Source: Anaerolineales bacterium (GTDB taxonomy: Bacteria; Chloroflexota; Anaerolineae; Anaerolineales; DRMV01). From it: a stretch of 64,000 bases of DNA. The stretch covers positions 567 to 64,566 of the forward strand of contig JALWJZ010000016.1 of assembly GCA_026996855.1 (NCBI GenBank), in the 5' to 3' direction. This document shows positions 29,438 to 64,000 of the stretch, piece after piece. Under the pieces are notes generated by a model. The model saw nothing but the letters and a program-made list of their open reading frames with translations, had not been told where the DNA came from and ran no database searches. The first letter of the stretch is position 1. Every line of letters starts with the position of its first letter. Position numbers and translations under genes: made by a program.

Positions 29438-29535
29438 AGTGGTCAGTGAACAGGAGTGAGGGGTGAGCAGTCAGCAGTGGGCAGTCAGCGAACTGCCGAC
29501 CGCAGACCGCGGACTGCCGGCTGCTGATTGCCGAC
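29438..29535. repeat. heptamer tandem array (14 units) in the ilvC-leuA spacer
   Basis: agtggtc agtgaac .. agcagtc agcagtg ggcagtc agcgaac tgccgac cgcagac cgcggac tgccggc tgctgat tgccgac. Internal hairpin 29475-29485 / 29494-29504. Confidence 0.9.
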
Positions 29536-29539
29536 CGCG

Positions 29540-30562
29540 CTATATCTCCCATCGCTCCGGGTCCACCTCCACAGGGTCGAGGAAGGGCATCATACGGCGC
29601 AGGCGACGGCCCACCGCTTCGATGGGGTGTCGGGCTTCTTCGCGACGCTTTTGGTTGAACCAGGGTCGTCCTTTGGCATTTTCCTCGATCCATTCCCGAG
29701 CGAAGGAGCCGTCCTGGATGGCCTGGAGCACCTCCCGCATGGTCTGGCGCACGTGCTCGTCGATGATGCGTGGGCCGACTTTGTAGTCGCCGTATTCCGC
29801 GGTGTCGGAAACCGAGTACCGCATGTAGGTCAGGCCGCCCCGGTAGAGCAGGTCCACGATGAGTTTGAGTTCGTGCAGGGTTTCGAAATAGGCCAGTTCG
29901 GGCTGGTATCCGGCTTCCACCAGGGTTTCGAACGCGGCCTTGATGAGCGCGGTCACACCGCCGCACAGCACCGTTTGCTCGCCGAAGAGGTCGGTTTCGG
30001 TTTCCTCTTTGAAGGTGGTCTCCAGTACGCCGGCACGGGTACATCCGATGCCCCAGGCGTAGGCCAGGGCCACGTCTCGGGCCTGGCCGCTGGCATCCTG
30101 ATGCACGGCCAGAAGGGCCGGTGTGCCCGCTCCCTGGGTGAAGAGTTCCCGCACCCGGTGGCCCGGGGCCTTGGGCGCGACCATGCTCACGTCCACAAAG
30201 GCCGGCGGACGGATGGTGCCGTAATGGATGTTGAAGCCGTGGGCGAACATGAGGGTCTGGCCTTCCCGCAGGTGAGGTTCGATGGCCTCGGTGTACACCC
30301 GGGGCTGGACCGTATCCGGAAGCAGCACCATGACCACGTCGGCCCATTGCACCACATCGGGAATGGTGCCGACCGTCAGGCCCTGGGCCTCGGCCCGGTC
30401 CCAGGAAGGGCTGCCGGGCCGTAAACCCACCCGTACCTGGATGCCGCTATCCTTCAAGTTCAGCGCGTGCGCGTGGCCCTGAGAGCCAAACCCCAGTACC
30501 GCCACTTTGCGTTCCAGGATGGCCTGGGGGGAAACGTCCGTATCGTAATACATGCGAGTCAT
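29540..30562 (-). CDS. ilvC: ketol-acid reductoisomerase
   Basis: [42 protein letters not shown]. Confidence 0.95.
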
Positions 30563-30576
30563 GAGAAGCCTCCTTG

Positions 30577-30680
30577 GTGGGGATGTGGAATGAATGGGGA
30601 TATGCGAATGAGCGGATATGCGAATGGGCGGATGAGCGAATATGCGAATATGCGGATATGCGAATGGGCGGATGGGTGGA
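30577..30680. repeat. octamer tandem array (about 13 units, T[AG][TG]GCG[AG]A) upstream of ilvC
   Basis: tatgcgaa tgagcgga tatgcgaa tgggcgga tgagcgaa tatgcgaa tatgcgga tatgcgaa tgggcgga tgggtgga. Confidence 0.9.
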
Positions 30681-30693
30681 AGGACGGCGTTGT

Positions 30694-32400
30694 TCATTCG
30701 GCGCGCAGGCAGGCAGGGTCCGTTTCGGGGGGAAGGAGCAGGATGCCGGATTCCAGTTGCTTCCACACCCGAAAACCGGCCTGGCGCAAATCCTGGAGCA
30801 GCACTTCGGCCCAGGCGCGCTCCTCTTCCAGTTGCACGTTTTCGTCCATGAGGACCAAAACCAGGGCGCACGTGCCCTGGGTGCGCTGGGCCAGGTCTTT
30901 GGCCCAATCTTCGGGGGTGGTATAGGGCACAGGGTGACACTCGCCCTGCACGGGGTTGCAGTAAAAGGCCCGGCCTTCCCGCCACACCGGCCGGCCCCGG
31001 AGCCGGAAAGCGGGTCGGTCGGCGTAGTACAGGGTTTCTTCGCGTTCGTTGGTGTACACCGGCACCTTGGGGGGCAGGCTGCGGAGCGCCGGCCATGCGT
31101 CCAGGGTTTGCCATCCTTCGCCCCTGAGCAGAGCGCCGGCCCGGTGCCAGCGTCCCAGCAGGAAAAACTCGTCGTCCACCTTGGCGGTGCGCATCATGTG
31201 CACCCATGCCCACAGAAGCACCAGGGCCAGGGGCCACCACCGGGCCAGGGCAAACCAAGCGGCCACGCCTGCCAGCAGGGAAAGGGCCAGGTGTTCCGGC
31301 GCCAGAAGCCGCCAGTCCATGGGCGTGGAAGCATCCAGGAAGGCAATGGCCGCGACCAGGCCCAGGGCGTACAACACCGCAAAACTCCCCCAGCGCACGA
31401 AGAAGGCCTCCAACGGCACCAGGTTCCGTTTCCTTTGGGGGAAGGCCGGGGCCTGGATACGCGCCAGGAACACCAGCAGCCCCAGGCCCACCAGCAGCCC
31501 GGCGCTTCGTACCACCGCTTCTTGTGGAGTGAAGGTGCGGTAATGGGGCACCAGCCAGGAAGCCAGGGTGTACGCGGCCTGCAACCAGCGCTGGGTATCC
31601 GGGGGGTGCCATCCCAGGGTGCGGGAGGCCACCGCGCCGTCGGCCAGGCGGGAGGCCAACATCAGCCCCAAAATGGGCCCTCCCGAGGCGGCGAGAAAGG
31701 CCCCTACTTGTTGCTTCCATCCGGTGGGTCGCTGCTTCCTCCAGGTCCAGGCCAGGTAAACCAGCGTCCAAGCCGGCAAGACGAGGCCCAGCCAGCGGTT
31801 GCTCACCGACCAGGCCGCCAACAGTCCCGTCAACACGGACCGGGAGGGGCCAGGCCGCTGCCGCCAGCGTTCCATGGCCCAGGCCGTGGCCATGATTTGC
31901 GCCAGGAACAGGGCTTCGCTCCACACCCCCGCGAACATGCGGAGTAGGTGGAAGGAGACCCCCAGCCAGAGGACCGTGGTCGCGGTGGGGAACAGGTGCC
32001 GGGTGGCGCGATACACCTCGTACGCGGCCAGGGCCAGCACGAGGGCCAGGCTGGCCATGTTCACGGCCAGGGCCGCCAGGGCTTCATCGCCGTGGGTGAA
32101 GGTCATGAACACGGCAATGGCCAGGGGGTAACCGGGCGGGAAATGGCTTACAGGGTCCAGGCCTCCGTGGGGAAGGGGAAAGCCATAGCGCCCTCGCCGG
32201 TGGAGTTCCCGGGCCAGAACCAGGTAAGTCAGCCCGTCGGAATTGGCTCCCGGTCCCCAGTTCTCCGTGGCTTTGTACACCAGTCCCAGTCCCAGCCCGA
32301 TGGCGGCCAGGGTCACAAGCGCCACCGGCAGGGGATGCTCCCATAGGGGATGGTTGCGAAAGCGTTCCCAAAGGGCTTGGCCGGGCAATCGCCAGGTCAT
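30694..32400 (-). CDS. polytopic membrane protein, GT-C (ArnT/PMT)-like, with a C-terminal soluble domain
   Basis: [37 protein letters not shown].. then about 11 TM segments and a ~170-aa tail. Start chosen at the internal ATG 32400. Confidence 0.45.
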
Positions 32401-32438: not shown

Positions 32439-34868
32439 CTACACGGCGGGCACTTCGGGCGGCGCGGTTTCCATGCCCTGGGAGGGCCCAGCGCCGTCGT
32501 CGCCGTTCCCTTGTTCCCGTACCAGTCGAGCGAAGGTTTCCAGCCGTTTGGCCACCGCGTGGTGGAAGGTGCCTTCGGGAAAGGTCCCATCGGGTTGGCG
32601 CTGGCCCGGTTCCATCCCCGTCAAAAGGCCGATGGCCTCGTCGATGGTCTCGACGGCCCAGATATGGAAGCGGCCTTCCCGCACGGCTTCCACCACCTCT
32701 TCCCGGAGCATAAGGTGTTTTCGATTGGCCTTGGGGAGAATCACGCCCTGGGTGCCCGTCAGGCCCAGGGCTTTGCACGTGGCAAAGAACCCTTCGATTT
32801 TCTCGTTCACCCCGCCCACGGCCTGGATGTTGCCGTGCTGGTCCACCGAACCGGTGATGGCCACGTCCTGCCGCAGGGGGATTTGGGCGATGGCGGAAAG
32901 CAAAGCCAGCAACTCCGCAGCCGAAGCGCTGTCGCCTTCCACCCCTTCGTAGGATTGCTCGAAGGTGATGCGCGCGCTCAAACTCAGCGGCCCCAGGTGG
33001 CCGTACTGGTGGCCCAGATAGCCCCCCAGAATGAGCACGCCCTTGGTGTGAATGGGGTCGCCCAGTTCCGCCTGTTTTTCGATGTCCACCACCTCGCCCC
33101 GGCCTGGGGCTGCGGTCGCGGTGATGCGCACCGGCCGACCGAAGGCATAATCGCCCAAGAAAATCACGGCCAGGCCGTTCATTTGGCCCACGGTTTCGCC
33201 TTCCACCTTCACCCGGAAGACGCCTTCCCGGATGATTTCCCGGATGCGTTCCTCCAGGTAGTTGGCGCGGTAGATGCGGGCTTCTTCGGCCTGGCGCAGG
33301 TCCTCCGCGGTGATGACTCCCCGCTGGTTTTGCCCGGCCCAGTAGGCGGCTTCCCGCAGGTAGTCGGTCAGCAGGCCGAAACGGGTGGAGAGTTTGTCTT
33401 GATGCCCGGCCAGCCGGGAGCCGATTTCCACCAGGCGGGCCACCGCGGTGGCGTCCAGCGGCGGTAGGTTTTCCGTGGCCTGGGCGATGCGGGCAAAGAG
33501 GGCGTACTCTTTTTCCGTTTCAGGGGTGCGGGGCATGTCCAGCGCGAACTCGGCCCGCACTTTGAACAGTTTGGGAAAATCTTCATCGTAACGGCGGAGC
33601 AGGTAGTAGAGCAAAGGCGAACCGATGAGCACCACTTTGGTTTCCAGGGGCACGGGTTCGGGTTCCAGGGTCACGGTGGTGATGAGGCTCAGGTCCGCGG
33701 CCAGTTCGATGATGCGCACCCGGCCTTCTCGTAAGGCGCGCTTCAGGCCGTACCAGGCGTAGGGGAGCAGGAGCACATCCAGAGCAGGAAGCACCAGATA
33801 CCCGCCCGCAGCCCGATGAAGCGCGCCGGCCCGAATCAAAGTATGGTCGGTGCGGGTCACGCCCATGACCACTTCGTGTTCGATGCGGCCCAACAGGTTG
33901 CCATACGAGGGGTGGTTTTCCACCACCACGGGCGCGCCTTTCAAGTCGCCGTTGTCCACGACCACGTTTACCTGATACCGGCGGGACCATACTTCCCACT
34001 GCGCTTCGGGGATTTTGCCCTCGGCCAGGTCCAAAAACGCTTTCCGATTGCGCACGATGTCTTCCTGCACGGCTTGCAGGTACGCCGAGACGCCTTCCAC
34101 CGGGCCGTGTTTCTTTTCCAATTCCTCTACCAGGTGTTCCACTACGAAAGTGGTGGTGCGCCGGTCCAGTTCTTCGAAGGCTTTGCGGGCTTTCTCTTCG
34201 ATTTCCCGGAGGCGGCGCAGGGTCTTTTTGATTTCCTCTTCCAGTCGGGCCTTGGCTTCCTCTCGTTGCTGGTCTTCTTCTGGGGATTCGGGCGTTTGCT
34301 CGCCTTCACCGCCGTCGGTGGCCGGTACCAGGGCAAAGCCAAAGGGGGTTTCCACCAGGTTGAAGCCCTCGTCCTGGGCTTTTTTCTTGAGTTTGCGCAT
34401 TTCTTGTTGTTGGCGCTTCTGCACCGTCTGGGCAATACGTTCCCGGGCCTGGCGGTAAGAGTCGCTTTGGAAAGCCCGCGGCAGTTCACGGCGGCAGGCT
34501 TCGAGCAGGCGTTGCATATCCTGGGCAAAGGCGCGGCCCTGCCCCGGTGGAAAGCGCAAGGCCTGGGGCCGTTTGGGGTCTTGGAAGTTGTACACATAGG
34601 CCAGATCGGGAGGAGTGGGCTGTTGTGCGGCCTGCTCTTGCAAAAAGCGCACAGTGAGGGAGAGCCGACCCGAACCGGGCCAGCCCAGTACGAACATGTT
34701 GTAACCTTTGGAGGGAATGCCGCTCCCTACCTTGAGGGCCTGGAAGGCCCGGGGCTGGCCGATGGGGCGAAACTCCAGGGGCAGTTCCTCGGTGGTCTGA
34801 AAGCCCAAGGCTCTTGGGTCGCAGGTTTTGCGCAGCATTTCAGGACCGAGTTCGGGAATGTTGGTCAT
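32439..34868 (-). CDS. LonC-type Lon-like protease with degenerate Walker A
   Basis: P-loop position reads GWPGSGRLS (no Lys). Long coiled-coil insertion. Lon protease domain YEGVEGDSASAAELLALLSA..VGGVNEKIEGF. SD is GAGGAGGTG. Confidence 0.8.
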   Translation of the reverse strand: MTNIPELGPEMLRKTCDPRALGFQTTEELPLEFRPIGQPRAFQALKVGSGIPSKGYNMFVLGWPGSGRLSLTVRFLQEQAAQQPTPPDLAYVYNFQDPKRPQALRFPPGQGRAFAQDMQRLLEACRRELPRAFQSDSYRQARERIAQTVQKRQQQEMRKLKKKAQDEGFNLVETPFGFALVPATDGGEGEQTPESPEEDQQREEAKARLEEEIKKTLRRLREIEEKARKAFEELDRRTTTFVVEHLVEELEKKHGPVEGVSAYLQAVQEDIVRNRKAFLDLAEGKIPEAQWEVWSRRYQVNVVVDNGDLKGAPVVVENHPSYGNLLGRIEHEVVMGVTRTDHTLIRAGALHRAAGGYLVLPALDVLLLPYAWYGLKRALREGRVRIIELAADLSLITTVTLEPEPVPLETKVVLIGSPLLYYLLRRYDEDFPKLFKVRAEFALDMPRTPETEKEYALFARIAQATENLPPLDATAVARLVEIGSRLAGHQDKLSTRFGLLTDYLREAAYWAGQNQRGVITAEDLRQAEEARIYRANYLEERIREIIREGVFRVKVEGETVGQMNGLAVIFLGDYAFGRPVRITATAAPGRGEVVDIEKQAELGDPIHTKGVLILGGYLGHQYGHLGPLSLSARITFEQSYEGVEGDSASAAELLALLSAIAQIPLRQDVAITGSVDQHGNIQAVGGVNEKIEGFFATCKALGLTGTQGVILPKANRKHLMLREEVVEAVREGRFHIWAVETIDEAIGLLTGMEPGQRQPDGTFPEGTFHHAVAKRLETFARLVREQGNGDDGAGPSQGMETAPPEVPAV

Positions 34869-35034
34869 GCGGCACCTCCTCGAGACGGTTCCATTGTACT
34901 CCATCTCGAGGGGGAAGGGGCCGAACCGGGGCCAACTTCCCGGTTGGCGTTCTTTTGGTTTGTCAAGGTGCCGTTGACGGCCGAACGGACCTCGGCCTTT
35001 GGTACGCCTTTTCGTCCCGTATGCCCAGGACCCA

Positions 35035-35580
35035 TCAAACCGTAGGGCGATGGCCGTTGGCCCCGGGCAGATGGCGGTGACCGGCCGCCATGCCACGGGT
35101 CATGGCCACGTGGCCGGTGCGCACCACTTCCACCAGGCCCGCGGGCCGGAGCAGGTCGATGAGGCTGTCCACCTTTTCCGGCGCGCCCGTGATTTCCACC
35201 GTGACCGTCTCAGGGGAAACGTCCACGATGTTGGCCCGGTACACCGCGGCCAGGTTGATGATCTCCGTGCGCTGGCCCGGCGGCGCTTTCACCTTGATGA
35301 GGGCCAGTTCCCGCACCACCGCGGGCCGGTCGGTCACATCCTGCACGTCCAGCACGTTCACCAACTTGTACAGGTTGGCCTCGATGAGATGGGCCTTCTC
35401 GTCCTCGATGTCCACCACGATGGTCATGCGGGAAACCCGGGGGTCCTGGGTGGTGCCCACGTTCAGGGAGTGGATGTTGTAATTCCGCCTGCGGAACAGG
35501 GACGCCACCCGGTTCAGCACCCCGGGCTTGTTCTCCACCCAGGCGATGAAAATGTGGGGTCGGGGACCATTGGGGTTCAT
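35035..35580 (-). CDS. ilvN: acetolactate synthase small (regulatory) subunit
   Basis: HIFIAWVENKPGVLNRVASLFRRRNYNIHSLNVG ACT domain. Confidence 0.9.
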   Translation of the reverse strand: MNPNGPRPHIFIAWVENKPGVLNRVASLFRRRNYNIHSLNVGTTQDPRVSRMTIVVDIEDEKAHLIEANLYKLVNVLDVQDVTDRPAVVRELALIKVKAPPGQRTEIINLAAVYRANIVDVSPETVTVEITGAPEKVDSLIDLLRPAGLVEVVRTGHVAMTRGMAAGHRHLPGANGHRPTV

Positions 35581-35598: not shown

Positions 35599-35661
35599 AG
35601 TGGACAGTGGACAGTGGTCAGTGGTCGGCTAACGGCTATCGGCTATCGGCTATCGGCTAAC
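35599..35661. repeat. heptamer tandem array (9 units) in the ilvB-ilvN spacer
   Basis: agtggac agtggac agtggtc agtggtc ggctaac ggctatc ggctatc ggctatc ggctaac. Contains the ilvB stop (35650-35652). Confidence 0.9.
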
Positions 35662-37373: not shown

Positions 37374-37450
37374 TCGTTGGTGGTCGTTGGTCGGTGGTCG
37401 TCAGTCCACAGTTAACCATCGACTATCGACCGTCGACCATCGACCATCAA
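37374..37450. repeat. heptamer array (11 units) forming an imperfect palindrome across the ilvD stop
   Basis: tcgttgg tggtcgt tggtcgg tggtcgt cagtcca cagttaa ccatcga ctatcga ccgtcga ccatcga. Arms 37385-37405 / 37418-37438. Confidence 0.9.
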
Positions 37451-41311: not shown

Positions 41312-41371
41312 ACGTCTTCTCCTCCTTCGTGAGGTTTTTGAGAATGAACGGCCAAAGGTCAGGCCAAGAAG

Positions 41372-45738: not shown

Positions 45739-45774
45739 TGGTCGCTGGTTGGCGGTCGTTGGGGAGGTGATACA

Positions 45775-52954: not shown

Positions 52955-53412
52955 GATGCGCCTTCCTCACCCAGAAGGTGGACATGGGGGAAATGGGGCC
53001 GCACCAAGCGGGCCAGCCGACGGTCTGCCGTCCAGAAAGGGGCCTGAAGACGCCGGGCCAGAGCCAGGTAATGGGCGTCGTATGTCGCGGGCAATCGCCA
53101 CTGGTGGGCTAGACGCAGGGCCTCCTGGTGGAGTTCCGGGTACGTCACCAGGTCGATGTCCAGACGCAACGCCGTTTCCAAGACCTGAAGGGCGCGCTCC
53201 AGGGAGAACAAATCTGCCCTCACATATCGGTAAACAGCATTGGAAATCTCGAAGAACATCAACGGCGGAGCCACCAGCCTTCGGCCTTCCTTTTGCCACC
53301 TGACCCAAAGACGGTCGGCGACTGGGCCTTCTTTTGAGTCAACCAACATCCGGACAACAAAACTGGCATCAAGGCAGATGGTCGAAGCCGAGGGCTTCCA
53401 TGATCTGAGCAT
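52951..53412 (-). CDS. PIN-domain toxin (VapC-like)
   Basis: Acidic residues in CLDASFVV, FFEISNA, TYDAHYLALA and FWTADRRL. Overlaps the antitoxin 3' end. Confidence 0.75.
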   Translation of the reverse strand: MLRSWKPSASTICLDASFVVRMLVDSKEGPVADRLWVRWQKEGRRLVAPPLMFFEISNAVYRYVRADLFSLERALQVLETALRLDIDLVTYPELHQEALRLAHQWRLPATYDAHYLALARRLQAPFWTADRRLARLVRPHFPHVHLLGEEGAS

Positions 53413-53698
53413 CGCGTTCCTCCCGCATTTGCCGAATGATTTCTTCAGGTGGAGGAAGTTGTCGGTCCCCCAGTTCTTTGCGTATTTGCGCACGCAAGGC
53501 CAGAATCCGCTCCAGGGTTTCCTCCCAGGCGGGTCGGGCTTCTCCCCCTTGCAAACGGCGATAGGCTTCATAGGACAGCATCACCACATAGGGCTGGCCG
53601 CTTCGGGCCACGATGATGACGTCCCCCTGTTCCGCGGCGCGGCGCATCCATTCGCCCAGCCGAATTCGGGCCTCGGTTGCACTGATAACCCGTTCCAT
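53369..53698 (-). CDS. Phd/YefM family antitoxin
   Basis: ISATEARIRLGEWMRRAAEQGDVIIVARSGQPYVVMLSYEAY. Confidence 0.8.
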   Translation of the reverse strand: MERVISATEARIRLGEWMRRAAEQGDVIIVARSGQPYVVMLSYEAYRRLQGGEARPAWEETLERILALRAQIRKELGDRQLPPPEEIIRQMREERDAQIMEALGFDHLP

Positions 53699-53765: not shown

Positions 53766-54854
53766 TCATTCCAGTGCGCGGGCAGCCGTGCGCACCATTT
53801 CGCCCAATGCGGTGATAAAGGCTGGGTCGTCGTTCAAAGACTCGGTGCGGCGCACCTGGACGCCCAAAGTGCGGGCCCGTTGTTGCAATTCGATGTCAAT
53901 GTCGTACAGGATTTCCACATGGTCACACACGAATCCAATGGGCACGACCAGGACCTCCCGCACACCCTGCCGGGCCAGGTCTTCGACCAGGTCGCCCACG
54001 TCGGGCCCCAGCCAGGGCACGGCCGAGGCGCCTGCGCTCTGGTAGGCCACATGCCACGCGTCCAGCCCCAGGTGCTCGGCCACCCGGCGCGCGCTTTCCC
54101 GAACCTCCTTGTCATAAGGGTCGCCCTGCTCCACCACCTTTTGAGGCAGGCTGTGCGCGGTGAAGACCACCACAGGCTTACTTCCCTCCCAGGCAGATAG
54201 GGCCTCTTCCACTTTGTGAGCCACAGCCTGGATGAAGCCTGGATAGGTGGACCAACGGGTGATGAAGACGCTGGTCAGCGGTCGGCGGTGGGCCGTGGGC
54301 AGTGGGCGGTCGGTAGTCGGCGGTGGGTAGTCAACAGAAGGCAAAGAGGGGGCATCGCCCTGTGTCCACACTTTTACTTCGCATCCGACCTCAGATTGCT
54401 GACTGCTCGCTGCTGATTGCTCCCAGCCTTCTGCTTGCGTCAAAGGCCGATACCCCTGGGCTTCCAGGGCTTTTTCCAGCGCCTGCCGGTAAGCGCCGAT
54501 GCTCATACGGGAATAATGGGGGGCCATGGGCAGGGCCACAATCCGGCGAAAGCCCTGGTTCAGGATGTCCGGAAGCACTTCGTGGATGTAAGGGTGCCAG
54601 TGGCGCATGCCCACGAAGGTTTTGAAGTGCGGCCCCAGATGTTGGTGCAGCCAGGCCTCCAGCGCCCGGGCCTGGGCCTGGGTGTGCTCCAGCAGGGGGG
54701 ATTTCCCGCCGATGAGGCGGTACCGTTCCCGCACTTCTTCCACCAACTCTTGGGGTGTGGGACGACCGTGGCGCACGTCCAGTAGATAAGGTTTGACATC
54801 GTCCAGGGAAAGGGGACCCCCGTAGGCGAGCAAGAAGACGGCGGTGGGTTCCAT
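53766..54854 (-). CDS. hemH: ferrochelatase (coproporphyrin ferrochelatase type) carrying a ~55-codon repeat-derived insertion
   Basis: VFLLAYGGP..RYRLIGGKSPL..AHSLP..VPIGFVCDHVEILYDID. 362 aa, against the ~310 aa I recall as typical. Confidence 0.9.
   Translation of the reverse strand: MEPTAVFLLAYGGPLSLDDVKPYLLDVRHGRPTPQELVEEVRERYRLIGGKSPLLEHTQAQARALEAWLHQHLGPHFKTFVGMRHWHPYIHEVLPDILNQGFRRIVALPMAPHYSRMSIGAYRQALEKALEAQGYRPLTQAEGWEQSAASSQQSEVGCEVKVWTQGDAPSLPSVDYPPPTTDRPLPTAHRRPLTSVFITRWSTYPGFIQAVAHKVEEALSAWEGSKPVVVFTAHSLPQKVVEQGDPYDKEVRESARRVAEHLGLDAWHVAYQSAGASAVPWLGPDVGDLVEDLARQGVREVLVVPIGFVCDHVEILYDIDIELQQRARTLGVQVRRTESLNDDPAFITALGEMVRTAARALE
54272..54422. repeat. arm-core-arm heptamer element inside hemH
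   Basis: Left arm, 9 units (tggtcag cggtcgg cggtggg ccgtggg cagtggg cggtcgg tagtcgg cggtggg tagtcaa). Then a ~50-nt unique core. Right arm cagattg ctgactg ctcgctg ctgattg. Confidence 0.9.
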
Positions 54855-54873: not shown

Positions 54874-54908
54874 GGATTGGTGGTCAGCCGTCAGCGGACA
54901 GCGGACTG
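54874..54908. repeat. heptamer array (5 units) across the hemE stop and hemE-hemH spacer
   Basis: ggattgg tggtcag ccgtcag cggacag cggactg. Confidence 0.8.
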
Positions 54909-56005
54909 CTTCGCTCATGCACATATTCCACGACAAAGGCCACCTGGTCCGGGTCGGTTTCGGGAAGCACACCGTGGCCCAGGTTGAAGATGTGGCCTGC
55001 CTGGCCTCGGGCTTCTGCAAGCACCGCATCCGCCTGGCGGGCCAGTACCTCCCGTGGGGCCAGCAGGGCCACCGGATCCAGATTCCCCTGGATGGCGTGG
55101 TGGCCTCCAACCGCCTCCCAGGCCGCGCCCAGGGGTACCCGCCAGTCCACGCCGATGACCTCCGCATCCAGGTCATGGAAAAGGGGTAGCAGGCCTGCGG
55201 TGCCGGTGGAAAAGTAAATTCGAGGGACGCCCGTCACTTGCAATCCCCGCAGCAGGGCCTGGACGTGGGGTTTCACATAACGGGCATAGTCCCCAGGACT
55301 CAGGGCACCGGCCCAACTGTCGAAGATTTGCACCGCCTGCGCGCCGGCGTCGATCTGGGCCTTGAGGTAATCCAGCGTGACGCGGACCAGCCGCTTCATG
55401 AGGGCGTCCCAGGCCTGGGGATGGTGGTACATCCAGCGTTTGGTCTCGACGTAATGGCGGGAACTCCCGCCCTCGATGGCATAAGAAGCCACGGTGAAGG
55501 GCGCGCCGGCAAAGCCGATAAGGGGCGTTTGGGGGGCTTCAAGCCGTACCCGGCGCACCGTCTCGAAAACGAAGCCCAGGGCTTCGTGCACGTCCACCAG
55601 GGGGAGGGTTTCCACCCGGTCCGGCGTCAGGCGGGGTTCCAATACCGGGCCGCGCCCTTTCTCAAAACGCAACCTCAGCCCCAGCGCTTCCAGTGGAAGC
55701 AGGATGTCCGCGAAGAGGATGAGGGCATCCACGCCCAGACGCAGGGGAAGCAGCGTCACCTGGGCGGCCAGGTCGGGCTCGCGCATGAGTTCCAGCAGGC
55801 CGTAGCGCTCCCGCAGCGCCCGGTATTCGGGCATGTAACGCCCGGCCTGCCGCATGAACCACACCGGCGTGTAGGGTGTGGGCTGCCGATAGCACGCGGC
55901 GAGGAAGGGGGGAAGGCGGTCGGCGGACAGCGGACGGCGGACGGCGGTCGGCTGTCGGCTGTCAGCGGACGGCGGTCGGCGGTCGGCCGTTGGCGGTTTC
56001 AGCAT
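54884..56005 (-). CDS. hemE: uroporphyrinogen decarboxylase with a repeat-encoded N-terminal extension
   Basis: TPVWFMRQAGRYMPEY..SWAGALSP. The only SD-preceded start (GAGGAGG, ATG at 56005) lies upstream of 30 array-encoded codons. Confidence 0.9.
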   Translation of the reverse strand: MLKPPTADRRPPSADSRQPTAVRRPLSADRLPPFLAACYRQPTPYTPVWFMRQAGRYMPEYRALRERYGLLELMREPDLAAQVTLLPLRLGVDALILFADILLPLEALGLRLRFEKGRGPVLEPRLTPDRVETLPLVDVHEALGFVFETVRRVRLEAPQTPLIGFAGAPFTVASYAIEGGSSRHYVETKRWMYHHPQAWDALMKRLVRVTLDYLKAQIDAGAQAVQIFDSWAGALSPGDYARYVKPHVQALLRGLQVTGVPRIYFSTGTAGLLPLFHDLDAEVIGVDWRVPLGAAWEAVGGHHAIQGNLDPVALLAPREVLARQADAVLAEARGQAGHIFNLGHGVLPETDPDQVAFVVEYVHERSSPLSADG

Positions 56006-56112
56006 TCGTGTTCCTCCTCATGCATTCGCTCACTGCTGATGGCTGACTTGCTGACTGCTGATTGCTCACTGCCGTCTGCTCACCGCTGACCGCTCACTGC
56101 TGACCGCTGACT
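55912..56112. repeat. 13-unit G-rich array, 26-nt core with the hemE SD and ATG, then 12-unit C/T-rich array
   Basis: gtcggcg gacagcg gacggcg .. (55912-56002), and ctcactg ctgatgg ctgactt gctgact gctgatt gctcact .. (56029-56112). Confidence 0.9.
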
Positions 56113-57410
56113 GCCCCAAACGCTTCCCGCGCCGCCTCCAGCGTGCGTTCCAGGTGCTCCTCCTCGTGGGCCAGGGACATGAACGCGGATTCATACTGGG
56201 AGGGCGGGTAATAGACCCCACGGGCGGCCATCTCCCAGAACCAGCGGGCGAAACGCTTCGTGTCGGCCTGGCTCACCTCTTCCCATGTGGTGGGCGCGCG
56301 GTCCAGGAAGAACACGGTGAACATGGTGCCCACGTGCTGCACGGTGACCGGGACGCCCGCCTCTTCCGCCGCCTGCGCCAGGCCCTGGGCCAGCCGTTGG
56401 GTGCGGGCTTCCAGCGTCTCCCATACCCCCGGCTCCCGCAGGGCATCCAACGTGGCGATGCCCGCAGCCATGGCCAGGGGGTTGCCCGAAAGGGTCCCGG
56501 CCTGGTACATGGGTCCTGCCGGGGCCACGTAGCGCATGATGTCTTTGGGGCCGCCGTACGCGCCCACAGGCAGCCCGCCGCCAATGACCTTGCCCAAGGT
56601 GGTGATGTCGGGCCGGACGCCATAGCGCGCCTGCGCGCCGCCCAGGGCCACCCGGAACCCCGTCATGACCTCGTCGAAGATGAGGAGCGCGCCGTAGCGG
56701 TCGCACAGCGCGCGCAGGCCCTCCAGGAAGCCCGGTTGGGGCGGCACCACGCCCATGTTTCCGGCCACCGGTTCCACGATGACCCCCGCGATGTCCTGGC
56801 CATGGGCTTCGAAAAGGGCTTCTACCGCGGCCAGGTCGTTGTAGGGTGCGGTCAGGGTGTCCTGGGTGGTGCCGGGGGTCACGCCGGGGGAATCGGGCAG
56901 GCCCAGGGTGGCCACGCCGGAGCCAGCCCGAACCAGGAGCGCGTCCACGTGGCCGTGGTAGCACCCGACGAACTTGACGACTTTCGTCCGGCCGGTGACC
57001 GCGCGGGCCAGGCGGATGGCGCTCATGGTGGCTTCGGTGCCCGAATTCACGAAGCGCACCATTTCGATGGAAGGCACCATCTCGATGACCCGCTCCGCGA
57101 GGTCGATTTCCAGGCGGGTGGGCGCGCCGTAAGACGTACCCCGTTCCGCAGCCTGCTTCACCGCTTCCACCACTTTGGGGTGGGCATGCCCCAGGATGAG
57201 GGGTCCCCAGGAGAGCACGTAATCGATGTAGCGGTTACCGTCGGCATCCCACAGGTAGGGGCCCCGGGCCTTTTCGATGAACAGGGGGACGCCGCCCACG
57301 GCGCGGAAGGCGCGGGCCGGGGAATTTACCCCACCCGGGATGACTTCCTGGGCCTTCTCGAACAGGCGTCGGGACGTCTCCACGCGTAAAGGTCGGGTCA
57401 GGGCTTCCAT
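56094..57410 (-). CDS. hemL: glutamate-1-semialdehyde 2,1-aminomutase
   Basis: [33 protein letters not shown] at 57410 follows GAAGGAGGAG. Confidence 0.95.
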
Positions 57411-57424: not shown

Positions 57425-57466
57425 GGCTGTCCGCCCACTGCTGACTGCTCACCGCTCACTGCCCAA
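57425..57466. repeat. heptamer array (6 units, C-rich type) across the PIN stop and hemL upstream spacer
   Basis: ggctgtc cgcccac tgctgac tgctcac cgctcac tgcccaa. Confidence 0.8.
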
Positions 57467-57940
57467 CACTGTCTCCAGGTGAAAGTCCTCGGCGAAGGGG
57501 TTGACGAAATGCACGCCTTCGATGGTGCTGCCGATAGCGAAGTCCTCGGTGAAGACCAGGGGGATTTGGTGCATCCGGGCCACGGCCCAGATTTGGGCGT
57601 CCCAGTAGGAAAAGCGGTACCGCCGCACCCCGCGTATAGCCTCCAGCACCACGGTTTCGGTAACGGGCAGCACCCGGAACGTGCGGGCCAGGTCCTCCAC
57701 CAAAGCCTGGGCCTGTTCGGGCGAGAGAGCAGGCCGGAGTTTCCGGGTGACCGTGTTGAAAAATTCGCCCAGAATCTGCGTGCTGATGATGCCCAGGCCA
57801 TGCTGTACCAGGCCTTCCAACACTTGCAAGGCACGGGCCTGCTTCTCTGGCTCGGAGCGGTCGTAGGCATACACCAGGACGTTGGTATCCAGGAAGACAT
57901 TGTTCCACTTATTTGCGGGGCCAGCGAAGACGTTCTTCAT
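57449..57940 (-). CDS. PIN-domain toxin (VapC-like)
   Basis: [37 protein letters not shown]. Confidence 0.75.
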
Positions 57941-58187
57941 AGAGCTCCTCCCTGGTCCAGGTTCGTCCTCCGGGCACGGGACCTTGGCTCATCCACCATT
58001 CGGCGAAGGCTTTGAGCCGTTGCCAGGCTTCCTGGCGTTCCCGTTCCTCCAGCGCCTGGCGGAGATACAAATCCAGCGCCCGGCGGATGAGTTCGGCTTC
58101 GGAGACCTGAAGCAGCCGGGAAAGGGTCTTCAACCGCTGCTCCTGGTGGGGTTCTAGATAGATTTGCTTGCGCACCATTCGGGCCAT
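57909..58187 (-). CDS. ribbon-helix-helix (CopG/VapB-like) antitoxin
   Basis: KQIYLEPHQEQRLKTLSRLLQVSEAELIRRALDLYL. SD is GGAGGTG. Overlaps the PIN start. Confidence 0.7.
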   Translation of the reverse strand: MARMVRKQIYLEPHQEQRLKTLSRLLQVSEAELIRRALDLYLRQALEERERQEAWQRLKAFAEWWMSQGPVPGGRTWTREELYEERLRWPRK

Positions 58188-58201
58188 AGCACACCTCCGT
58201 A

Positions 58202-58222
58202 TACATCACATGTACATCACAT
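58202..58222. promoter_or_regulatory. 10-nt direct repeat tacatcacat-g-tacatcacat upstream of the RHH antitoxin (candidate operator)
   Basis: Two identical 10-mers with an 11-nt period, 15-35 nt upstream of ATG 58187, touching the hemA stop codon. Confidence 0.3.
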
Positions 58223-59530: not shown

Positions 59531-59607
59531 CAGCGGTCGGCAGTGAGCAGTGGGCAGTCAGCGGTGGGAAGTGGGCTGTGGGCGGTCGGCGGTTGGTGGA
59601 TGGTAGT
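59531..59607. repeat. 11-unit G-rich heptamer array (left arm flanking the four-helix-bundle gene)
   Basis: cagcggt cggcagt gagcagt gggcagt cagcggt gggaagt gggctgt gggcggt cggcggt tggtgga tggtagt. Confidence 0.9.
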
Positions 59608-59639
59608 AAAATTTGTGCAGATGGCATGCGAGGTGGGGT

Positions 59640-60008
59640 ATGGGGCGCATGCGGTCGCATCGTGATTTGGAAGTGTGGAAGCGTTCGGCCCAATTCGCGC
59701 AGCGGATTTACCAGGTGACCGCCCACTTCCCCGACCAGGAGAAATACAACCTGACTGCGCAACTGCGGCGGGCCAGCACGTCGATTCCCGCCAACATCGC
59801 CAAAGGCCATGGACGTCGCACCGAGGGCGCGTTTGCTTTGCACCTGGATATTGCCTTGGGTTCGCTGGCGGAAATCGACACGTTCCTGTACCTGGCGCAC
59901 CATTTGGGCTATCTCTCCCAAGATGTTTACGAAGAATTGCTGAACGAACTCACCATTATCCGTCGCATGCTGTACCGCCTCTACAACCGCGTCCAATCTA
60001 ACCGCTGA
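59640..60008 (+). CDS. four-helix-bundle protein (TIGR02436 / 23S rRNA intervening-sequence protein family, Avd-like)
   Basis: RDLEVWKRSAQFAQRIYQVTAHFPDQEKYNLTAQLRRASTSIPANIAKGHGR..ALGSLAEIDTFLYLA. The start could be 59649. Confidence 0.85.
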   Translation: MGRMRSHRDLEVWKRSAQFAQRIYQVTAHFPDQEKYNLTAQLRRASTSIPANIAKGHGRRTEGAFALHLDIALGSLAEIDTFLYLAHHLGYLSQDVYEELLNELTIIRRMLYRLYNRVQSNR

Positions 60009-61143
60009 CGGCCGACGGCCGACCGCCGACCGCCGTCTGCCGTCCGCTGACTGCTGCCGGCTGATACACACACAACGGGTCCCATTCCAGCGGGTCGCCG
60101 AAGACCGCGTAAGCCCGGGCGCGAGAGCCGCCGCAGACCTTGCGATACTCGCAGTAGCCGCACTTTCCCTTGAGTTGGTCGGGGTCCCGCAGGGCGCGGA
60201 AGAGGGGGTGGTTGCGGTAGACCTCCACAGGGTGATGGGTACGCACGTTGCCCGTCACGATGGGCAGGAACCCCGCGGGATAGATTTCCCCAATGTGGGA
60301 AACGAACATGATGCCCGACCCATCCCGGATGCCGAAGCCAAAACGGAGGCGTTTGGGCATCTCTCGATTGCCTTCGGCTTTGGCCCGCTGCAAGGCCACC
60401 CGACGGTAGTGATGGGCTTCCGTAGTCTTGATGGCAAAGGGCGCTTCCTTGGCAAAGTCGTACAGCCAGTTGAGCAGGTCCTCGGCCTGTTCTGGGGTGA
60501 TGTCGCCCAGCACCTTCCCCCGGCCCACCGGGACTAAGAAGAACACGCTCCAGCGCTCCACGCCCAGGTCCACCAAAAGGCGGCCGATGTTGGGGATGTC
60601 GTCATAAGTCTCCGCGCAAACTAAGGTGTTGATTTGCAAAGGGAGACCCGCCTCCTTGGCCCAGCGAATGGCCGCAACGGTTTGTTCGAAACTCCCTGGC
60701 ACCATGCGGATGGCGTCGTGGCGCTCGGGCGTGGAGCCGTCCAAACTCACCGACATCATCCACACGCCCACGTCTTTGAAGCGGTGGACCACGTCCCGGG
60801 TCAGCGCATAGGTGCCGCTGGGGGTGATGGCAGTGAGGAAGCCCCGTTCTACCGAAGCCTGAAGCAAATCGAAGAGGTCGGGCCGCTTGAGGGGGTCACC
60901 GCCGGTGAACACGATGTGGGGCTTGGGTTCCCCGAATTCCAGGAATCTGTCCAGCAGGGCCAGACCCTCTTCGGTGGTGAGTTCCAGGGGATGGCGATGG
61001 GGCTGGGCCTCGGCCCGGCAGTGGCGGCAGACCAGGTCGCAGGCCCGGGTGACTTCCCAGTAGATGAGCATGGGTGCCTTGTGAATGTCGGGCCGCTGGA
61101 AGGCCGGGGGCCGTTTGCCGTTGGTCGGGGAAGGACGTGCCAT
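59998..61143 (-). CDS. radical SAM/SPASM protein of the AhbD (heme b synthase)-like type
   Basis: WEVTRACDLVCRHCR radical SAM cluster, and C-terminal CGYCEYRKVCGGSRARA. The last ~19 aa (AAVSGRQTAVGGRPSAVSG) are array-encoded. Confidence 0.75.
   Translation of the reverse strand: MARPSPTNGKRPPAFQRPDIHKAPMLIYWEVTRACDLVCRHCRAEAQPHRHPLELTTEEGLALLDRFLEFGEPKPHIVFTGGDPLKRPDLFDLLQASVERGFLTAITPSGTYALTRDVVHRFKDVGVWMMSVSLDGSTPERHDAIRMVPGSFEQTVAAIRWAKEAGLPLQINTLVCAETYDDIPNIGRLLVDLGVERWSVFFLVPVGRGKVLGDITPEQAEDLLNWLYDFAKEAPFAIKTTEAHHYRRVALQRAKAEGNREMPKRLRFGFGIRDGSGIMFVSHIGEIYPAGFLPIVTGNVRTHHPVEVYRNHPLFRALRDPDQLKGKCGYCEYRKVCGGSRARAYAVFGDPLEWDPLCVYQPAAVSGRQTAVGGRPSAVSG
60001..60063. repeat. 9-unit C-rich heptamer array (right arm flanking the four-helix-bundle gene)
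   Basis: accgctg acggccg acggccg accgccg accgccg tctgccg tccgctg actgctg ccggctg. Confidence 0.9.
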
Positions 61144-61161
61144 GGAAGACCTCCTTTTGAA

Positions 61162-61273
61162 GGGCCGTTGGCCGGCAGCCGTTGGCCGTTGGTGGAAAGC
61201 AGTCGGCGGTCAGCGGACGGCGGTCGGCCGTCGGCCGTCGGCTGACTGCTCACCGCTCACTGCTGACCGCCGT
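61162..61273. repeat. 16-unit heptamer array forming a near-palindrome in the hemQ / radical SAM spacer
   Basis: gggccgt tggccgg cagccgt .. cggcggt cggccgt cggccgt | cggctga ctgctca ccgctca ctgctga ccgccgt. Confidence 0.9.
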
Positions 61274-61909
61274 AATAATCGGTGTATCCCGCAAGGTGAA
61301 CTTGCGGGCCTCGGTGCTGCGCAGGTCCTGGACCAAATCCGAGAACTGGACCACGTCGTCGGTTTCGTAGACCACGACGAACTCCTGGTCCTGCACGCCA
61401 AAGGAGTACAGCAGGAGTTGCAGAATCTCGGGGTACTGCCGGCCCACCCGGATGTGTTCGTTCATCATGCCCTGGCGGGCATCCCGGCTCATCAGGTACC
61501 ACTCGGCCGTCTTGACGAAGGGGTACACGATGAGGTAGCGCTTGCGGACTTCCCCGAAGGGGTCGATTTCCTGGGGCGAACGGCCTTTCGCATAGATGGA
61601 GGGTTTGGTCACGCCCCACAGGGTGAGGGGCACTTCGGCATAGGGGTGCAGCGGTTCAAAGGCCCGGGCGAAGCCGGTGAAGAACCGGGCCGGGGTTTCG
61701 GGGTCTTCGTAGGGAATCGCGCACCAGAGGAGCACGTCGGCCTCGTGGCGGCTGGGGAAGACCTGGTACAGGTAGCGCCGCGGGGCCGCCTCGGCCAGGG
61801 CTTCCACCACCTGTTGCAGAAGGCCCTCGCGGGCCGCAGGCTCCAACTGCCAGTACGCGGGGCGGAACTTGAGCAGGGTGAAGTGGTTCAGCGAGCGTCG
61901 TTCAGCCAT
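61250..61909 (-). CDS. hemQ: coproheme decarboxylase (HemQ/ChdC, chlorite dismutase family)
   Basis: [38 protein letters not shown] is AGGAGG. Confidence 0.88.
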
Positions 61910-62877
61910 CGGGCCACCTCCTTGGCGTGATACGTGAGGATGAGGTCCGCGCCGGCGCGTTTGATGGCGGTGAGGATTTCCAGGGCCACCGCGCGCTCGT
62001 CCAGCCAGCCCCGCTGGGCCGCGGCCTTGACCATGGCGTACTCGCCGCTCACGTTGTACGCGGCCACCGGCACGGGGAAGGCCTCCCGCACGGCCCGGAT
62101 GACGTCCAGATACGCCAGCGCGGGCTTGACCATGACGATGTCCGCGCCTTCCGCGATGTCCAGGGCCACTTCCCGCAGGGCTTCCCGGGCGTTGGCCGGG
62201 TTCATCTGGTACCCCCGGCGGTCGCCGAACTGGGGCGGACTCTGGGCCGCGTCCCGGAAGGGGCCGTAGAAATGACTGGCGTACTTGGCTGCGTAGGCCA
62301 TGATGGGGATGTGGGCGTACCCGGCCTCATCCAGCGCGCGGCGGATGGCCGCAACCTGACCGTCCATCATCCCGCTGGGCGCGACCATGTCCGCGCCGGC
62401 CTGGGCATGGGTCACGGCCACCTTCCCGTAAATCTCCAGGGTCTCGTCGTTGACCACCTCGCCTTCCCGCACGATGCCGCAATGGCCGTGGTCGGTGTAT
62501 TCGCACATGCACACATCGGTGATGACCACCAGGTCGGGCACGGCCTGCTTGATGGCCCGGATGGCCTTGGGGATGATGCCCTCCGGGTCGAAGTTCTCCG
62601 TACCGATGGGGTCCTTGTGGGCTGGGATGCCGAAGAGGATGACCGCGGGGATGCCCAGGGCCGCGGCCTCCTCGGCTTCCCGCACGGCTTCGTCCACCGA
62701 AAGTTGGTAGACGCCAGGCATGGACGGAACCTCCCGGCGCACCCTTTTCCCATGAACTACGAAGAGGGGATAGATGAGGTCGTCCACCGTGAGCACGGTC
62801 TCCTGCATCATGCGCCGCAAGGCCGGGGTCCGGCGCAGACGCCGCAAGCGGGTTTGGGGGAAGGAGCCAAGGTGCAT
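61888..62877 (-). CDS. hemB: porphobilinogen synthase
   Basis: [33 protein letters not shown]. Confidence 0.95.
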
Positions 62878-62891
62878 GGGATACCTCCGGG

Positions 62892-63059
62892 GAAGTGGAC
62901 AGTGGACAGTGGTCAGTGGTCAGTGAACAGTGAACAGTGGTCAGTGGCGGTGGCGGTCGGCAGTCGGCTATCTGCTGTCTGCTATCTGCTGTCGGCTATC
63001 TGCTGTCTGCTATCTGCTATCTGCTCACTGCTGACGGCTGTCCGCTGACCGCTCACTGC
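62892..63059. repeat. 24-unit heptamer array in one uninterrupted register (hemD 3' end / hemB upstream)
   Basis: gaagtgg acagtgg acagtgg tcagtgg .. agtcggc | tatctgc tgtctgc tatctgc tgtcggc .. tgaccgc tcactgc. Confidence 0.95.
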
Positions 63060-64000
63060 TTCTACCAGTCCTTCCATGGTGTACTGCTGGGCCACGGCGT
63101 GGACGGGCAGGCCGGCCTCGCGCGCGGCCCGGGCGGTGATGGGGCCGATGCACACCACCCGCACGCCGGGCGGCAGGGGCCGTCCCCCCAGGGCCTGGAC
63201 GAAGCCCTGCACCGTGGACGGGCTGGTGAAGGTCACCACGTCCACCTCGTCCAGCGGGGGCGGCGTATCGGGCGGGGCCACTAAGGTGCGGTAGGCCACC
63301 ACCTCGTCCACCTGGGCGCCCCGGCTCTGGAGGATTTCCCGCAGCGTGGGCCGGGCCCGGTCGGCCCGGGCCAGCAGGATGCGCAACCCCCGCACGTCGC
63401 CCAGGGCATCGGCCAGGGCTTCGGCCACGTAAGCCGGGGGGATGAGGTCCGGCTCCCGGCCCTGGGCCTGTAAGGCCTTCGCGGTGGCGGGGCCGATGAC
63501 GGCGATGCGGACGTCCGCGGGCACTCGCAGGCCCAGGGCCTGAAGTCGGTTCCACACGAAGCGCACGCCGTTGGCCGAGGTCAAGACCAGCCAGTCGTAC
63601 CCGCCCCGGCTCAGGCGGTGCAGGGCCTGGTCCAGGGGTCCCCAGTTTTCGGGCGGCGCGATGCGGATGGTGGGGTAGAGCACAGGCTCGTACCCTGCCT
63701 CCCGCAGGCGGGCCAGCCATGCCTCGGCCTGCTCCGGGGGCCGGGTGATGAGGACGCGGAGCGGACGGCGGTCGGCAGTCGGCAGTCGGCTGTCCGCTGT
63801 CGGCTGTCCGCTGACCGCTGCCTGCTGACCGCTGCCTGCTGACTGCGCACTGCGCACTGCGGACTGCCCACTCCGCACCTGCATCGCCAATTCCCGTCCC
63901 AACCCCTCCGCTTCCTCCATCGGGGCCTGGCCCCGGACGCGATAGGGCGTGCCGTCGGCCGCGACGTACAGGGCGGTGAGGGTGAGGGTTCCTCCCTGCA
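62982..64000 (-). CDS. hemD: uroporphyrinogen-III synthase, continuous with a HemC (porphobilinogen deaminase) C-terminus through a repeat-encoded linker; 5' partial
   Basis: LRVLITRPPEQAE..WLVLTSANGV..VTFTSPSTV is HemD. The frame stays open upstream of M at 63920 to nt 64000 (..TLTALYVAADGTPYRVRGQAPMEEAEGLGRELA, HemC-like). Confidence 0.8.
   Translation of the reverse strand, partial: QGGTLTLTALYVAADGTPYRVRGQAPMEEAEGLGRELAMQVRSGQSAVRSAQSAGSGQQAAVSGQPTADSRLPTADRRPLRVLITRPPEQAEAWLARLREAGYEPVLYPTIRIAPPENWGPLDQALHRLSRGGYDWLVLTSANGVRFVWNRLQALGLRVPADVRIAVIGPATAKALQAQGREPDLIPPAYVAEALADALGDVRGLRILLARADRARPTLREILQSRGAQVDEVVAYRTLVAPPDTPPPLDEVDVVTFTSPSTVQGFVQALGGRPLPPGVRVVCIGPITARAAREAGLPVHAVAQQYTMEGLVEAVSGQRTAVSSEQIADSRQQIADSR
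63756..63881. repeat. 18-unit heptamer array translated as the hemC-hemD linker
   Basis: gcggagc ggacggc ggtcggc agtcggc agtcggc tgtccgc tgtcggc tgtccgc tgaccgc tgcctgc tgaccgc tgcctgc tgactgc gcactgc gcactgc ggactgc. Confidence 0.9.

Follow-up and report, generated by a model that had tools for sequence, protein, structure and literature searches.

In a 64,000-nt stretch of the genome of an Anaerolineales bacterium (Chloroflexota; contig JALWJZ010000016.1 of assembly GCA_026996855.1), referred to here in its whole length as the window, tandem repeats of heptanucleotide units form a period-7 family, whose members cluster at junctions between cistrons of the hem and ilv-leu operons. Each array is typically bipartite: a G-rich arm (RGTSAGC-type) comes first, and a C-rich arm complementary to it (GCYSACY- or CCACT-type) second. 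Several arms are read in frame within enzymes, and one pair of arms encloses a gene for an S23p protein, as do the intervening sequences (IVS) of certain 23S rRNA genes. The explanation we favour, in which our confidence is about even, is that they represent the arms of IVS-like quasi-palindromes, elements made of hypervariable heptanucleotide repeats that ride constitutively transcribed housekeeping operons.

Heptanucleotide arrays at the junctions of two operons

Arrays with a period of 7 nt, and with higher orders of 14, 21 and 28 nt, were returned by Tandem Repeats Finder (TRF) at each main locus named in a first-pass annotation of this DNA, and none was returned before 29.4 kb (ilv-leu side: 29455-29489, 35599-35659 and 37381-37448; hemH to hemL: 54273-54331, 54892-54906, 55911-55996, 56028-56114 and 57436-57462; hemA to hemD: 59531-59593, 60001-60054, 61163-61270, 62894-63053 and 63766-63878). 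A scan at lag 7, which required at least 17 of 21 matches in 21-nt windows, found 16 segments where shuffled sequence gave a mean of 0.04, and the motif GTSRGCN repeated three times occurred 20 times against 0.01 expected. When 42-nt windows were compared with themselves, a match of at least 70% was reached at lags 7 and 14 only, with the exception of one 8-nt array at 30.6 kb. Twelve of the 13 loci reported in the first pass are thus genuine period-7 arrays, while a short trace at 45740-45765 is not significant, appearing neither in the TRF output nor in the lag-7 scan. The same two methods bear out the earlier statement that the first 27 kb of the window contain no such arrays.

All the array-bearing genes lie on the minus strand. 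Arrays occupy eight of the 13 hem junctions, plus one intragenic site, and three of the six ilv-leu junctions, a fourth being filled by a period-8 array. The concentration at junctions that had been described is therefore real, but it covers less than nearly all of the hem cluster and, for heptamers, three rather than four ilv-leu junctions. At least 12 other co-directional junctions in the window have no array. The individual features are as follows.

29438-29535, minus strand: hairpin between ilvC and leuA, with the G-rich arm at 29535-29487 and the C-rich arm at 29486-29438 in mRNA sense (fold z = -4.1); the ilvC stop (29540-29542) lies on one side and the leuA Shine-Dalgarno sequence (SD) and ATG (29417) on the other
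30578-30680, minus strand: period-8 array of about 12 units (YCATYCGC/ATATYCGC in sense), filling the junction between a gene for a 568-aa protein and ilvC; a single arm ending at the ilvC SD, a related junction filler and the octamer counterpart of the heptamer arrays
35599-35661, minus strand: between ilvB and ilvN, (GATAGCC/GTTAGCC)x5 and then (GACCACT/GTCCACT)x4 up to the SD; the two arms are non-complementary
37374-37450, minus strand: hairpin between ilvD and ilvB, (GATGGTC)x5 and (GACCACC-type)x4, then SD and ATG (z = -6.6)
54272-54422, minus strand: insert within HemH (gene 53766-54854), with arm A at 54422-54395, a core of about 60 nt and arm B at 54330-54272
54874-54908, minus strand: short array between hemE and hemH, overlapping the hemE stop (54884-54886)
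55912-55995, minus strand: C-rich arm in the N-terminal part of HemE (ATG 56005, with the SD GAGGAGG upstream)
56028-56112, minus strand: G-rich arm between hemL and hemE, the partner of 55912-55995; it fills the spacer and holds the hemL stop (56094-56096)
57425-57466, minus strand: single G-rich arm between a PIN gene and hemL, which provides the PIN stop (57449-57451) and ends at the hemL SD
59531-59607, no assigned strand: arm flanking the S23p gene, G-rich on the plus strand; in hem mRNA sense it is a C-rich arm just 5' of the hemA SD and ATG (59520)
59640-60008, plus strand: S23p four-helix-bundle gene (PF05635), antisense to the hem operon and between two arms
60001-60063, no assigned strand: partner arm pairing with 59531-59607; in hem sense it is the C-terminal tail of a radical-SAM protein (59998-61143)
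61162-61273, minus strand: hairpin between hemQ and the radical-SAM gene, a G-rich arm and a long C-rich arm up to the SD (z = -2.4)
62892-63059, minus strand: composite of four unit families between hemD and hemB, the last part being ACTGACC/ACTGTCC up to the hemB SD
63756-63881, minus strand: paired arms read in the frame of HemD, where they form an N-terminal extension or a linker (z = -3.0)

The units are diverse. The GTCRGC/GCYGAC skeleton to which most units had been assigned is present as one family, and there are several others: RGTSAGC, AGTGGAC/AGTGGTC/AGTGAAC, GATAGCC, AGATAGC and GGTCGAT. Nor are all the runs uninterrupted, as had been stated, since 54272-54422 has its non-repeat core and a 32-nt spacer carrying the SD and ATG of hemE divides 55912-56112. 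As had also been recognised, the arrays are not decayed coding repeats, and they cross start and stop codons. An Rfam gathering scan of the whole window returned two tRNAs and no RNA family at the arrays; intrinsic terminators and promoters were not above shuffle expectation at the arrays, and T-tracts were absent there.

The arrays are retained in an independent Logan assembly of SRR13622958, in which 13,266 nt (13.3 kb) align at 99.99% without gaps and three arrays are reproduced exactly, and arrays also occur at the same junctions in related metagenome-assembled genomes (MAGs). At least 120 metagenome stretches, with GC contents from 0.18 to 0.73, match a search for four consecutive GTSRGCN units; this type of array is therefore not peculiar to the genome studied here. 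Eighty of these stretches were analysed further. Classifying their arrays by open reading frame (ORF) context was too noisy in GC-rich DNA for a junction bias to be quantified.

Arms are paired in a fixed order

Read as simple runs in the first pass, the arrays are largely inverted pairs, a feature that had been missed along with their translation in frame in essential enzymes. In mRNA sense, a typical junction starts where the upstream gene finishes (its 3' end or stop) and continues with the G-rich arm, the C-rich arm, GGAGG and ATG. The order of G-rich and then C-rich arm was found in all 22 inverted pairs (9/9 in the window and 13/13 at other loci), whichever strand they lie on, and a strand-symmetric pattern search of the metagenome loci found the order A to B six times and B to A not once. 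A stop-codon logic, with C-rich arms closed in all frames and G-rich arms open, was ruled out, as TGA and TAG units occur in both arm types.

What lies between the arms varies. There is nothing, leaving a hairpin, at the junctions of ilvC with leuA, ilvD with ilvB and hemQ with the radical-SAM gene and at the HemD N-terminus (fold z from -2.4 to -6.6); elsewhere there is a payload, which is the SD and ATG of hemE, the core of the hemH insert or, at 59640-60008, a whole gene.

An S23p gene between two arms, and similar modules in other phyla

The protein encoded at 59640-60008 matches PF05635 (23S_rRNA_IVP, E 1.4e-37) and the structure PDB 2GSC (XCC0516, a pentameric four-helix bundle; E 3.6e-24). 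With its flanks it forms an element, 59531-60063, in which a PF05635 ORF is enclosed by inverted arms able to form a long stem. The element is not in helix 25 or 45 of 23S rRNA: it lies between the radical-SAM gene and hemA, and there is no rRNA in the window.

Among the 80 metagenome stretches analysed, S23p-like genes lie between heptamer arms in three (L101, L114 and L115) and a fourth (L162) abuts an arm; a weaker fifth match, in L123, may be array-encoded. Since these stretches had been selected by their arrays, homologues were also fetched through the S23p protein alone, which removes that bias. A period-7 array was present within 100 nt of the gene on 9/12 flanks of the protein-fetched S23p genes, compared with 7% of background windows (binomial P = 8e-9). 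The lineages represented include Bacteroidota, Acetothermia and Acidobacteriia, and in five of six locus families the S23p gene sits in a run of co-oriented genes, among them the nuo, ccm, hydrogenase/hdr and kdgK-eda operons:

L205, same sample as the window: S23p gene between nuoD and nuoI
L208, Salinimicrobium soli: S23p gene in the interval between a methyltransferase gene and an aminotransferase gene
L209, Acetothermia: S23p gene in a hydrogenase/hdr operon
L210, genome of GC 69%: S23p gene directly upstream of the DNA polymerase III alpha gene
L214-L221, GC 40%: S23p gene between ccmE and ccmF
L222-L229, Acidobacteriia: S23p gene between kdgK and eda

The arms form predicted duplexes of -55 to -110 kcal/mol at eight of the ten S23p genes tested, with weaker ones at L214 and L208. 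Units vary by locus (AGATAGC/GCTAACY, GGGTGAC/GCGTCAC, GGTACTG/CCCAGTA and others), and the conserved features of the arms are period, polarity and inverted pairing. Copy number in the arms differs between strains (L205 and L207; L222 and L223). Units of the nuo-operon module, AGATAGC and GTTAGC, recur in the ORF-less arrays of the window between hemD and hemB and between ilvB and ilvN.

Many further PF05635 homologues (proteins P0121-P0240) are known only from contigs of 500-1200 nt that barely exceed the gene, a length that fits the breaking of short-read assemblies at flanking repeats.

Translation of the arms in enzymes

Several arms are read as protein. Since the hemE ATG at 56005 has a conserved SD and there is no alternative start before the conserved domain, the C-rich arm at this locus encodes about 30 N-terminal residues of HemE. 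In HemH, the array is a 49-aa in-frame insert (query residues 146-194) located where the match to the Bacillus subtilis ferrochelatase breaks. The radical-SAM protein and HemD both have array-encoded C-terminal tails, the latter ending at a stop (62982-62984) within the first part of 62892-63059, and the frame upstream of HemD is open through 63756-63881 up to the end of the window.

These segments change in length between relatives: the N-terminal arm of HemE is 42 nt shorter in the related loci L001 and L002 than in the window, and the HemH inserts of the same two differ from that of the window by a 21-nt gap. Because these in-ORF differences are 42 and 21 nt, the reading frame is conserved. 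HemH relatives at about 70% identity have an insert of about 30 aa at the same site without heptad-coded arms, and more distant relatives have no insert; the arms of HemH therefore grew on either side of a pre-existing variable loop.

One-unit gains or losses that toggle genes by frameshift, as at phase-variable contingency loci, would fit a period that is not a multiple of 3 and arrays that sit at N-termini like those of classical phase-variable genes. Such a role is effectively excluded, as the genes affected are essential housekeeping enzymes and both in-ORF differences keep the frame.

Turnover of arrays among relatives

The closest HemE loci are in three MAGs labelled Anaerolineales bacterium, with 92-96% amino-acid identity. 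The arrays are a property of this lineage: two were present in each of L001-L003 (6-15 kb), compared with five in the 1.36 Mb of 77 unrelated GC-rich hemE loci. Comparison of related junctions, which had been suggested as a search for empty sites, showed that L001 and L002 share array sites with the window at different copy numbers, but no clean empty site was obtained. In L002 the whole module of arm, S23p gene and arm is absent.

A closer relative, L083, shares 96.9% identity with the window along 1.7 kb, and its array between ilvB and ilvN is built from wholly different units. The mismatches are apparently concentrated in the array, with identity outside it estimated at about 99%. Because the L083 array has been rewritten wholesale, turnover is much faster than point substitution and goes beyond the gain and loss of units.

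Genomic context

The hem cluster runs, in order, from an ORF (possibly hemC) through hemD, hemB, hemQ, the radical-SAM gene, the antisense S23p gene, hemA, a pair of RHH and PIN genes, hemL, hemE, hemH and a pair of PhdYeFM and PIN genes to hemY. The ORF upstream of hemD is represented by a 55-aa fragment that has no Pfam match, for which reason a HemC-HemD fusion is put forward as a possibility only; an exact-protein look-up of HemB gave no match. Two toxin-antitoxin pairs thus lie within the hem operon, RHH+PIN at 57449-58205 between hemA and hemL and PhdYeFM+PIN at 52951-53660 between hemH and hemY, and the former is absent from the related MAG L002. The ilv-leu cluster has the order ilvD, ilvB, ilvN, a LonC-like gene, the gene for the 568-aa protein, ilvC and leuA, so that the LonC-like protease gene (32439-35096) and the 568-aa gene, which has no Pfam match (30694-32400), split the operon in the interval between ilvN and ilvC.

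Two repeats of other kinds occur in the window. A 130-bp unit at 13045-13635 is present in 4.5 tandem copies of about 92% identity, at the 3' end of a gene for a 1707-aa surface protein (13550-18673, minus strand). Each copy holds the last 28 or so codons of the sortase-domain end, the stop and a GC-rich hairpin with a T-run; the 3' end of the surface gene and its terminator-like hairpin have therefore been tandemly duplicated downstream. At 41148-41232 a 39-nt (13-codon) tandem duplication, of 2.2 copies at 89% identity, lies in the N-terminal part of a Bmp/PnrA-like lipoprotein gene (40133-41530, minus strand); this is a coding repeat of the usual sort and has no relation to the heptamers. 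Two minus-strand tRNA genes (1812-2037) and a gene for a XerC/D-type tyrosine recombinase (4836-5804) are located in the first part of the window, where arrays are absent.

Comparison with known repeats

In kind, the arrays are heptanucleotide simple sequence repeats (SSRs), with head-to-tail units far above chance, a bias to intergenic sites next to ORF ends and a copy number that varies among relatives at the same site. The short tandemly repeated repetitive (STRR) heptamers of heterocystous cyanobacteria, with which they had been compared, are a fair analogy in kind, and two systems are closer: the convergent GGGAATC pairs of Xanthomonas (PMC4692102) and the S23p-bearing IVS of 23S rRNA (PMC4990558). 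Given the former, the earlier view that nothing like these arrays had been described in GC-rich genomes was too strong.

In Xanthomonas campestris and X. axonopodis, GGGAATC arrays are intergenic, lie near ORF ends and form about 70 convergent pairs (Rehm et al. 2015, PMC4692102). Their sites are kept between species while length and sequence vary, and most are transcribed, although no function was found (PMC4692102). Our arrays resemble these pairs in belonging to a GC-rich genome, in their 7-nt units near ORF ends, in flanking the same genes in relatives with variation in length and in the convergence of their G-rich strands (22/22 pairs here). They differ in phylum and in units, only some of which carry GGG; GGGAATC has G-quadruplex potential, whereas most units of the window presumably have none. 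They differ also in that two operons are saturated with them and several enzymes include them as in-frame, translated segments. One Xanthomonas array, repeat #15, lies across the start codon of XCC0516, which is adjacent to bccP and encodes the S23p homologue that has been crystallised (PMC4692102, supplementary table). This overlap is an independent data point for a link between S23p and heptamers, which the authors of that study did not note.

The 23S rRNA IVS of Coxiella contains an S23p ORF and has terminal inverted repeats that are cut by RNase III (PMC4990558). Strain-variable GACAGAT heptamers lie beside the ORF, and the IVS is regarded as a selfish element on a highly transcribed operon (PMC4990558). 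The element at 59531-60063 shares with the IVS of Coxiella and Leptospira a PF05635 ORF within inverted repeats and heptamers of variable copy number (PMC4990558). Unlike those IVS, which RNase III excises from helix 45 or 25 of 23S rRNA, the elements described here are hosted by protein-coding operons; most copies in the window are, moreover, ORF-less and some are translated.

TAACTGA arrays lie just 5' of start codons in Beggiatoaceae, cyanobacteria and Bacteroidetes, and CspB binds the heptamer units (PMC4679880). Like these and the STRRs, the window arrays are heptamers in intercistronic regions and 5' untranslated regions that end just 5' of start codons, and the reverse orientation is translatable. 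STRR and TAACTGA repeats are, however, mostly single direct arrays of one unit in AT-rich genomes, whereas the window units are heterogeneous, GC-rich and arranged in inverted pairs. The arrays do not belong to the STRRs in the strict sense (CCCCAGT, TTGGTCA and CAACAGT of heterocystous cyanobacteria), as their units differ and the host is a member of the Anaerolineales. Some window units are presumably one base away from STRR2 and STRR3 (TGGTCAG and TGGTCAT; GAACAGT and CAACAGT).

Repetitive extragenic palindromic (REP) elements are intercistronic imperfect palindromes in operons that can affect mRNA stability, and Rickettsia palindromic elements (RPE) insert in frame into ORFs. Together with the composite forms of REP, the bacterial interspersed mosaic elements (BIME) and REPINs, they have a conserved sequence of fixed length and no 7-nt periodicity, and REP elements come with a cognate transposase, RAYT. 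The window arrays contain no conserved unit longer than 7 nt in place of the conserved palindrome of about 35 nt, and there is no RAYT among the window ORFs scanned.

In the literature we found nothing on heptamer repeats in Chloroflexota or Anaerolineae; on S23p genes together with heptamers we found nothing besides the Coxiella IVS paper, and no general statement of such a link.

Discussion

We suggest that the elements follow a common plan, in which a G-rich arm and its C-rich complement may hold a payload between them; 59531-60063 still carries the S23p ORF, and the others are ORF-less. The sites appear to be those that are transcribed yet permissive, namely intercistronic spacers, gene termini and the insertion-tolerant site in HemH. 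Arms would grow and shrink by replication slippage in 7-nt steps, and their complementarity may be restored through template switching within the palindrome or exchange between arrays, with selection probably confined to the reading frame, stop codons and SD/ATG. As RNA, the arms could pair as long imperfect stems, and if, by analogy with the IVS, these were cut by RNase III, the junction elements would act between cistrons as sites of processing or stability; cutting of the junction stems by RNase III is the most concrete hypothesis of a function. A complementary tandem-repeat stem should still pair after a slip of one unit, which may explain why the architecture persists.

A number of results weigh against this explanation. 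The arrays between ilvB and ilvN, hemE and hemH, and the PIN gene and hemL, as well as the HemH insert, fold no better than shuffles. Summed over the hem and ilv arrays, the minimum free energy is -408 kcal/mol for the sense mRNA and -540 kcal/mol for the antisense (plus) strand, while in background regions the strands differ by just -1.6 kcal/mol per 130 nt. Where the arms mispair, the mRNA strand has A·C and the opposite strand G·U; G·U pairs favouring the mRNA strand had been expected, and the opposite was found in these arrays. The weaker folding of the sense strand therefore argues against selection for strong stems in hem mRNAs, and the asymmetry is more suggestive of translated mRNAs avoiding strong structure than of their being selected for it. 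No consistent strand bias in arm folding was seen at the S23p loci of other taxa. RNase III cuts inside translated arms, furthermore, would harm those mRNAs. As to the S23p modules, neither a target-site duplication nor a clean empty site was seen when the window was compared with L002, loci of the L214 type carry merely two or three weak units, and the S23p loci of different taxa have no unit sequence in common, because of which homology of the arms is not demonstrable.

The arrays could instead be plain neutral microsatellites, produced by slippage in unconstrained spacers where an S23p gene happens to land or beside which they arise, both gathering where sequence is permissive, with no shared origin and no function. 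We consider this unlikely, though a serious alternative: copy number changes by whole units, heptanucleotide repeats are reported to be the most frequent class of long SSR in many genomes (as cited by PMC4679880 and PMC4692102), several arrays have one arm or arms that do not complement each other, and units differ between taxa. Slippage alone, however, leaves unexplained the complementary arms around a payload and the invariant polarity of the 22 pairs, as well as the statistical association with S23p and the array-free state of the other co-directional junctions in the window.

It is quite improbable that the arrays are non-autonomous elements of the miniature inverted-repeat (MITE) or REPIN type, moved in trans by a RAYT-like or other transposase, with the heptamer arms as terminal inverted repeats. 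Inverted arms around a variable core, the presence of the S23p module in the window and its absence in L002, the replacement of an array between the near-identical strains represented by the window and L083, and one in-frame insertion, that in HemH, reminiscent of RPE, would all suit such elements. Copies, however, have just short units in common, with no conserved termini, target-site duplication or fixed element length, and the L002 site is not a clean empty site; the sole recombinase-like gene in the window is the XerC/D-type integrase (4836-5804), no transposase being present, and the HemH insert grew from the loop of about 30 aa rather than arriving whole.

Less probable still is that the arrays serve as a platform for a protein that binds single-stranded RNA or DNA over a 7-nt footprint and thereby tunes translation of the downstream cistron, for instance a cold-shock protein, as proposed for the TAACTGA repeats. 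The C-rich arms do end directly at the SD of leuA, ilvN, ilvB, hemA, the radical-SAM gene and hemB, a position recalling the CspB-bound TAACTGA arrays that abut start codons in Beggiatoaceae (PMC4679880). Such a platform is hard to reconcile with units that are heterogeneous within and between arrays, with arrays in C-terminal tails and inside HemH, and with the exchange of one array for unrelated units between strains. An artefact of assembly or sequencing is effectively excluded, more firmly than any of the above, for although short-read contigs often end in arrays (28/138 metagenome-locus arrays are within 150 nt of a contig end, and L081 and L082 begin inside 35599-35661), three arrays are identical in the independent assembly, MAGs of other samples contain orthologous arrays and reading frames are kept through the arrays.

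Beyond the IVS-like reading of the hem and ilv-leu arrays, a broader and rather doubtful proposal is that heptamer-armed S23p modules would form a widespread and hitherto unrecognised class of operon-riding selfish cassettes, uniting the cyanobacterial STRRs, the Xanthomonas GGGAATC pairs, the Beggiatoaceae-type repeats and the 23S rRNA IVS. The S23p protein, pentameric and a relative of Avd, would generate, maintain or mobilise the arms, and the ORF-less arrays of the hem and ilv operons would be non-autonomous progeny.

Paired heptamers were already known from Xanthomonas and cyanobacteria, and heptamers together with inverted repeats from the Coxiella IVS; what is new here is that a further phylum has such pairs, that their density is unusual and that they are translated in frame in essential enzymes. 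HemH, HemE and HemD tolerate rapidly changing, repeat-encoded peptide segments, with the frame kept by changes of 21 and 42 nt. Since contigs break at them, the arrays also matter for gene annotation and for the assembly of MAGs.

The PF05635 S23p proteins are encoded by very common genes. The window brings heptamer repeats, an S23p gene and an IVS-like architecture together, and makes testable the hypothesis that the arms form a slip-tolerant stem of an operon-riding element, possibly an RNase III site. The link between S23p and heptamers across phyla would be of real interest if it proves true genome-wide.

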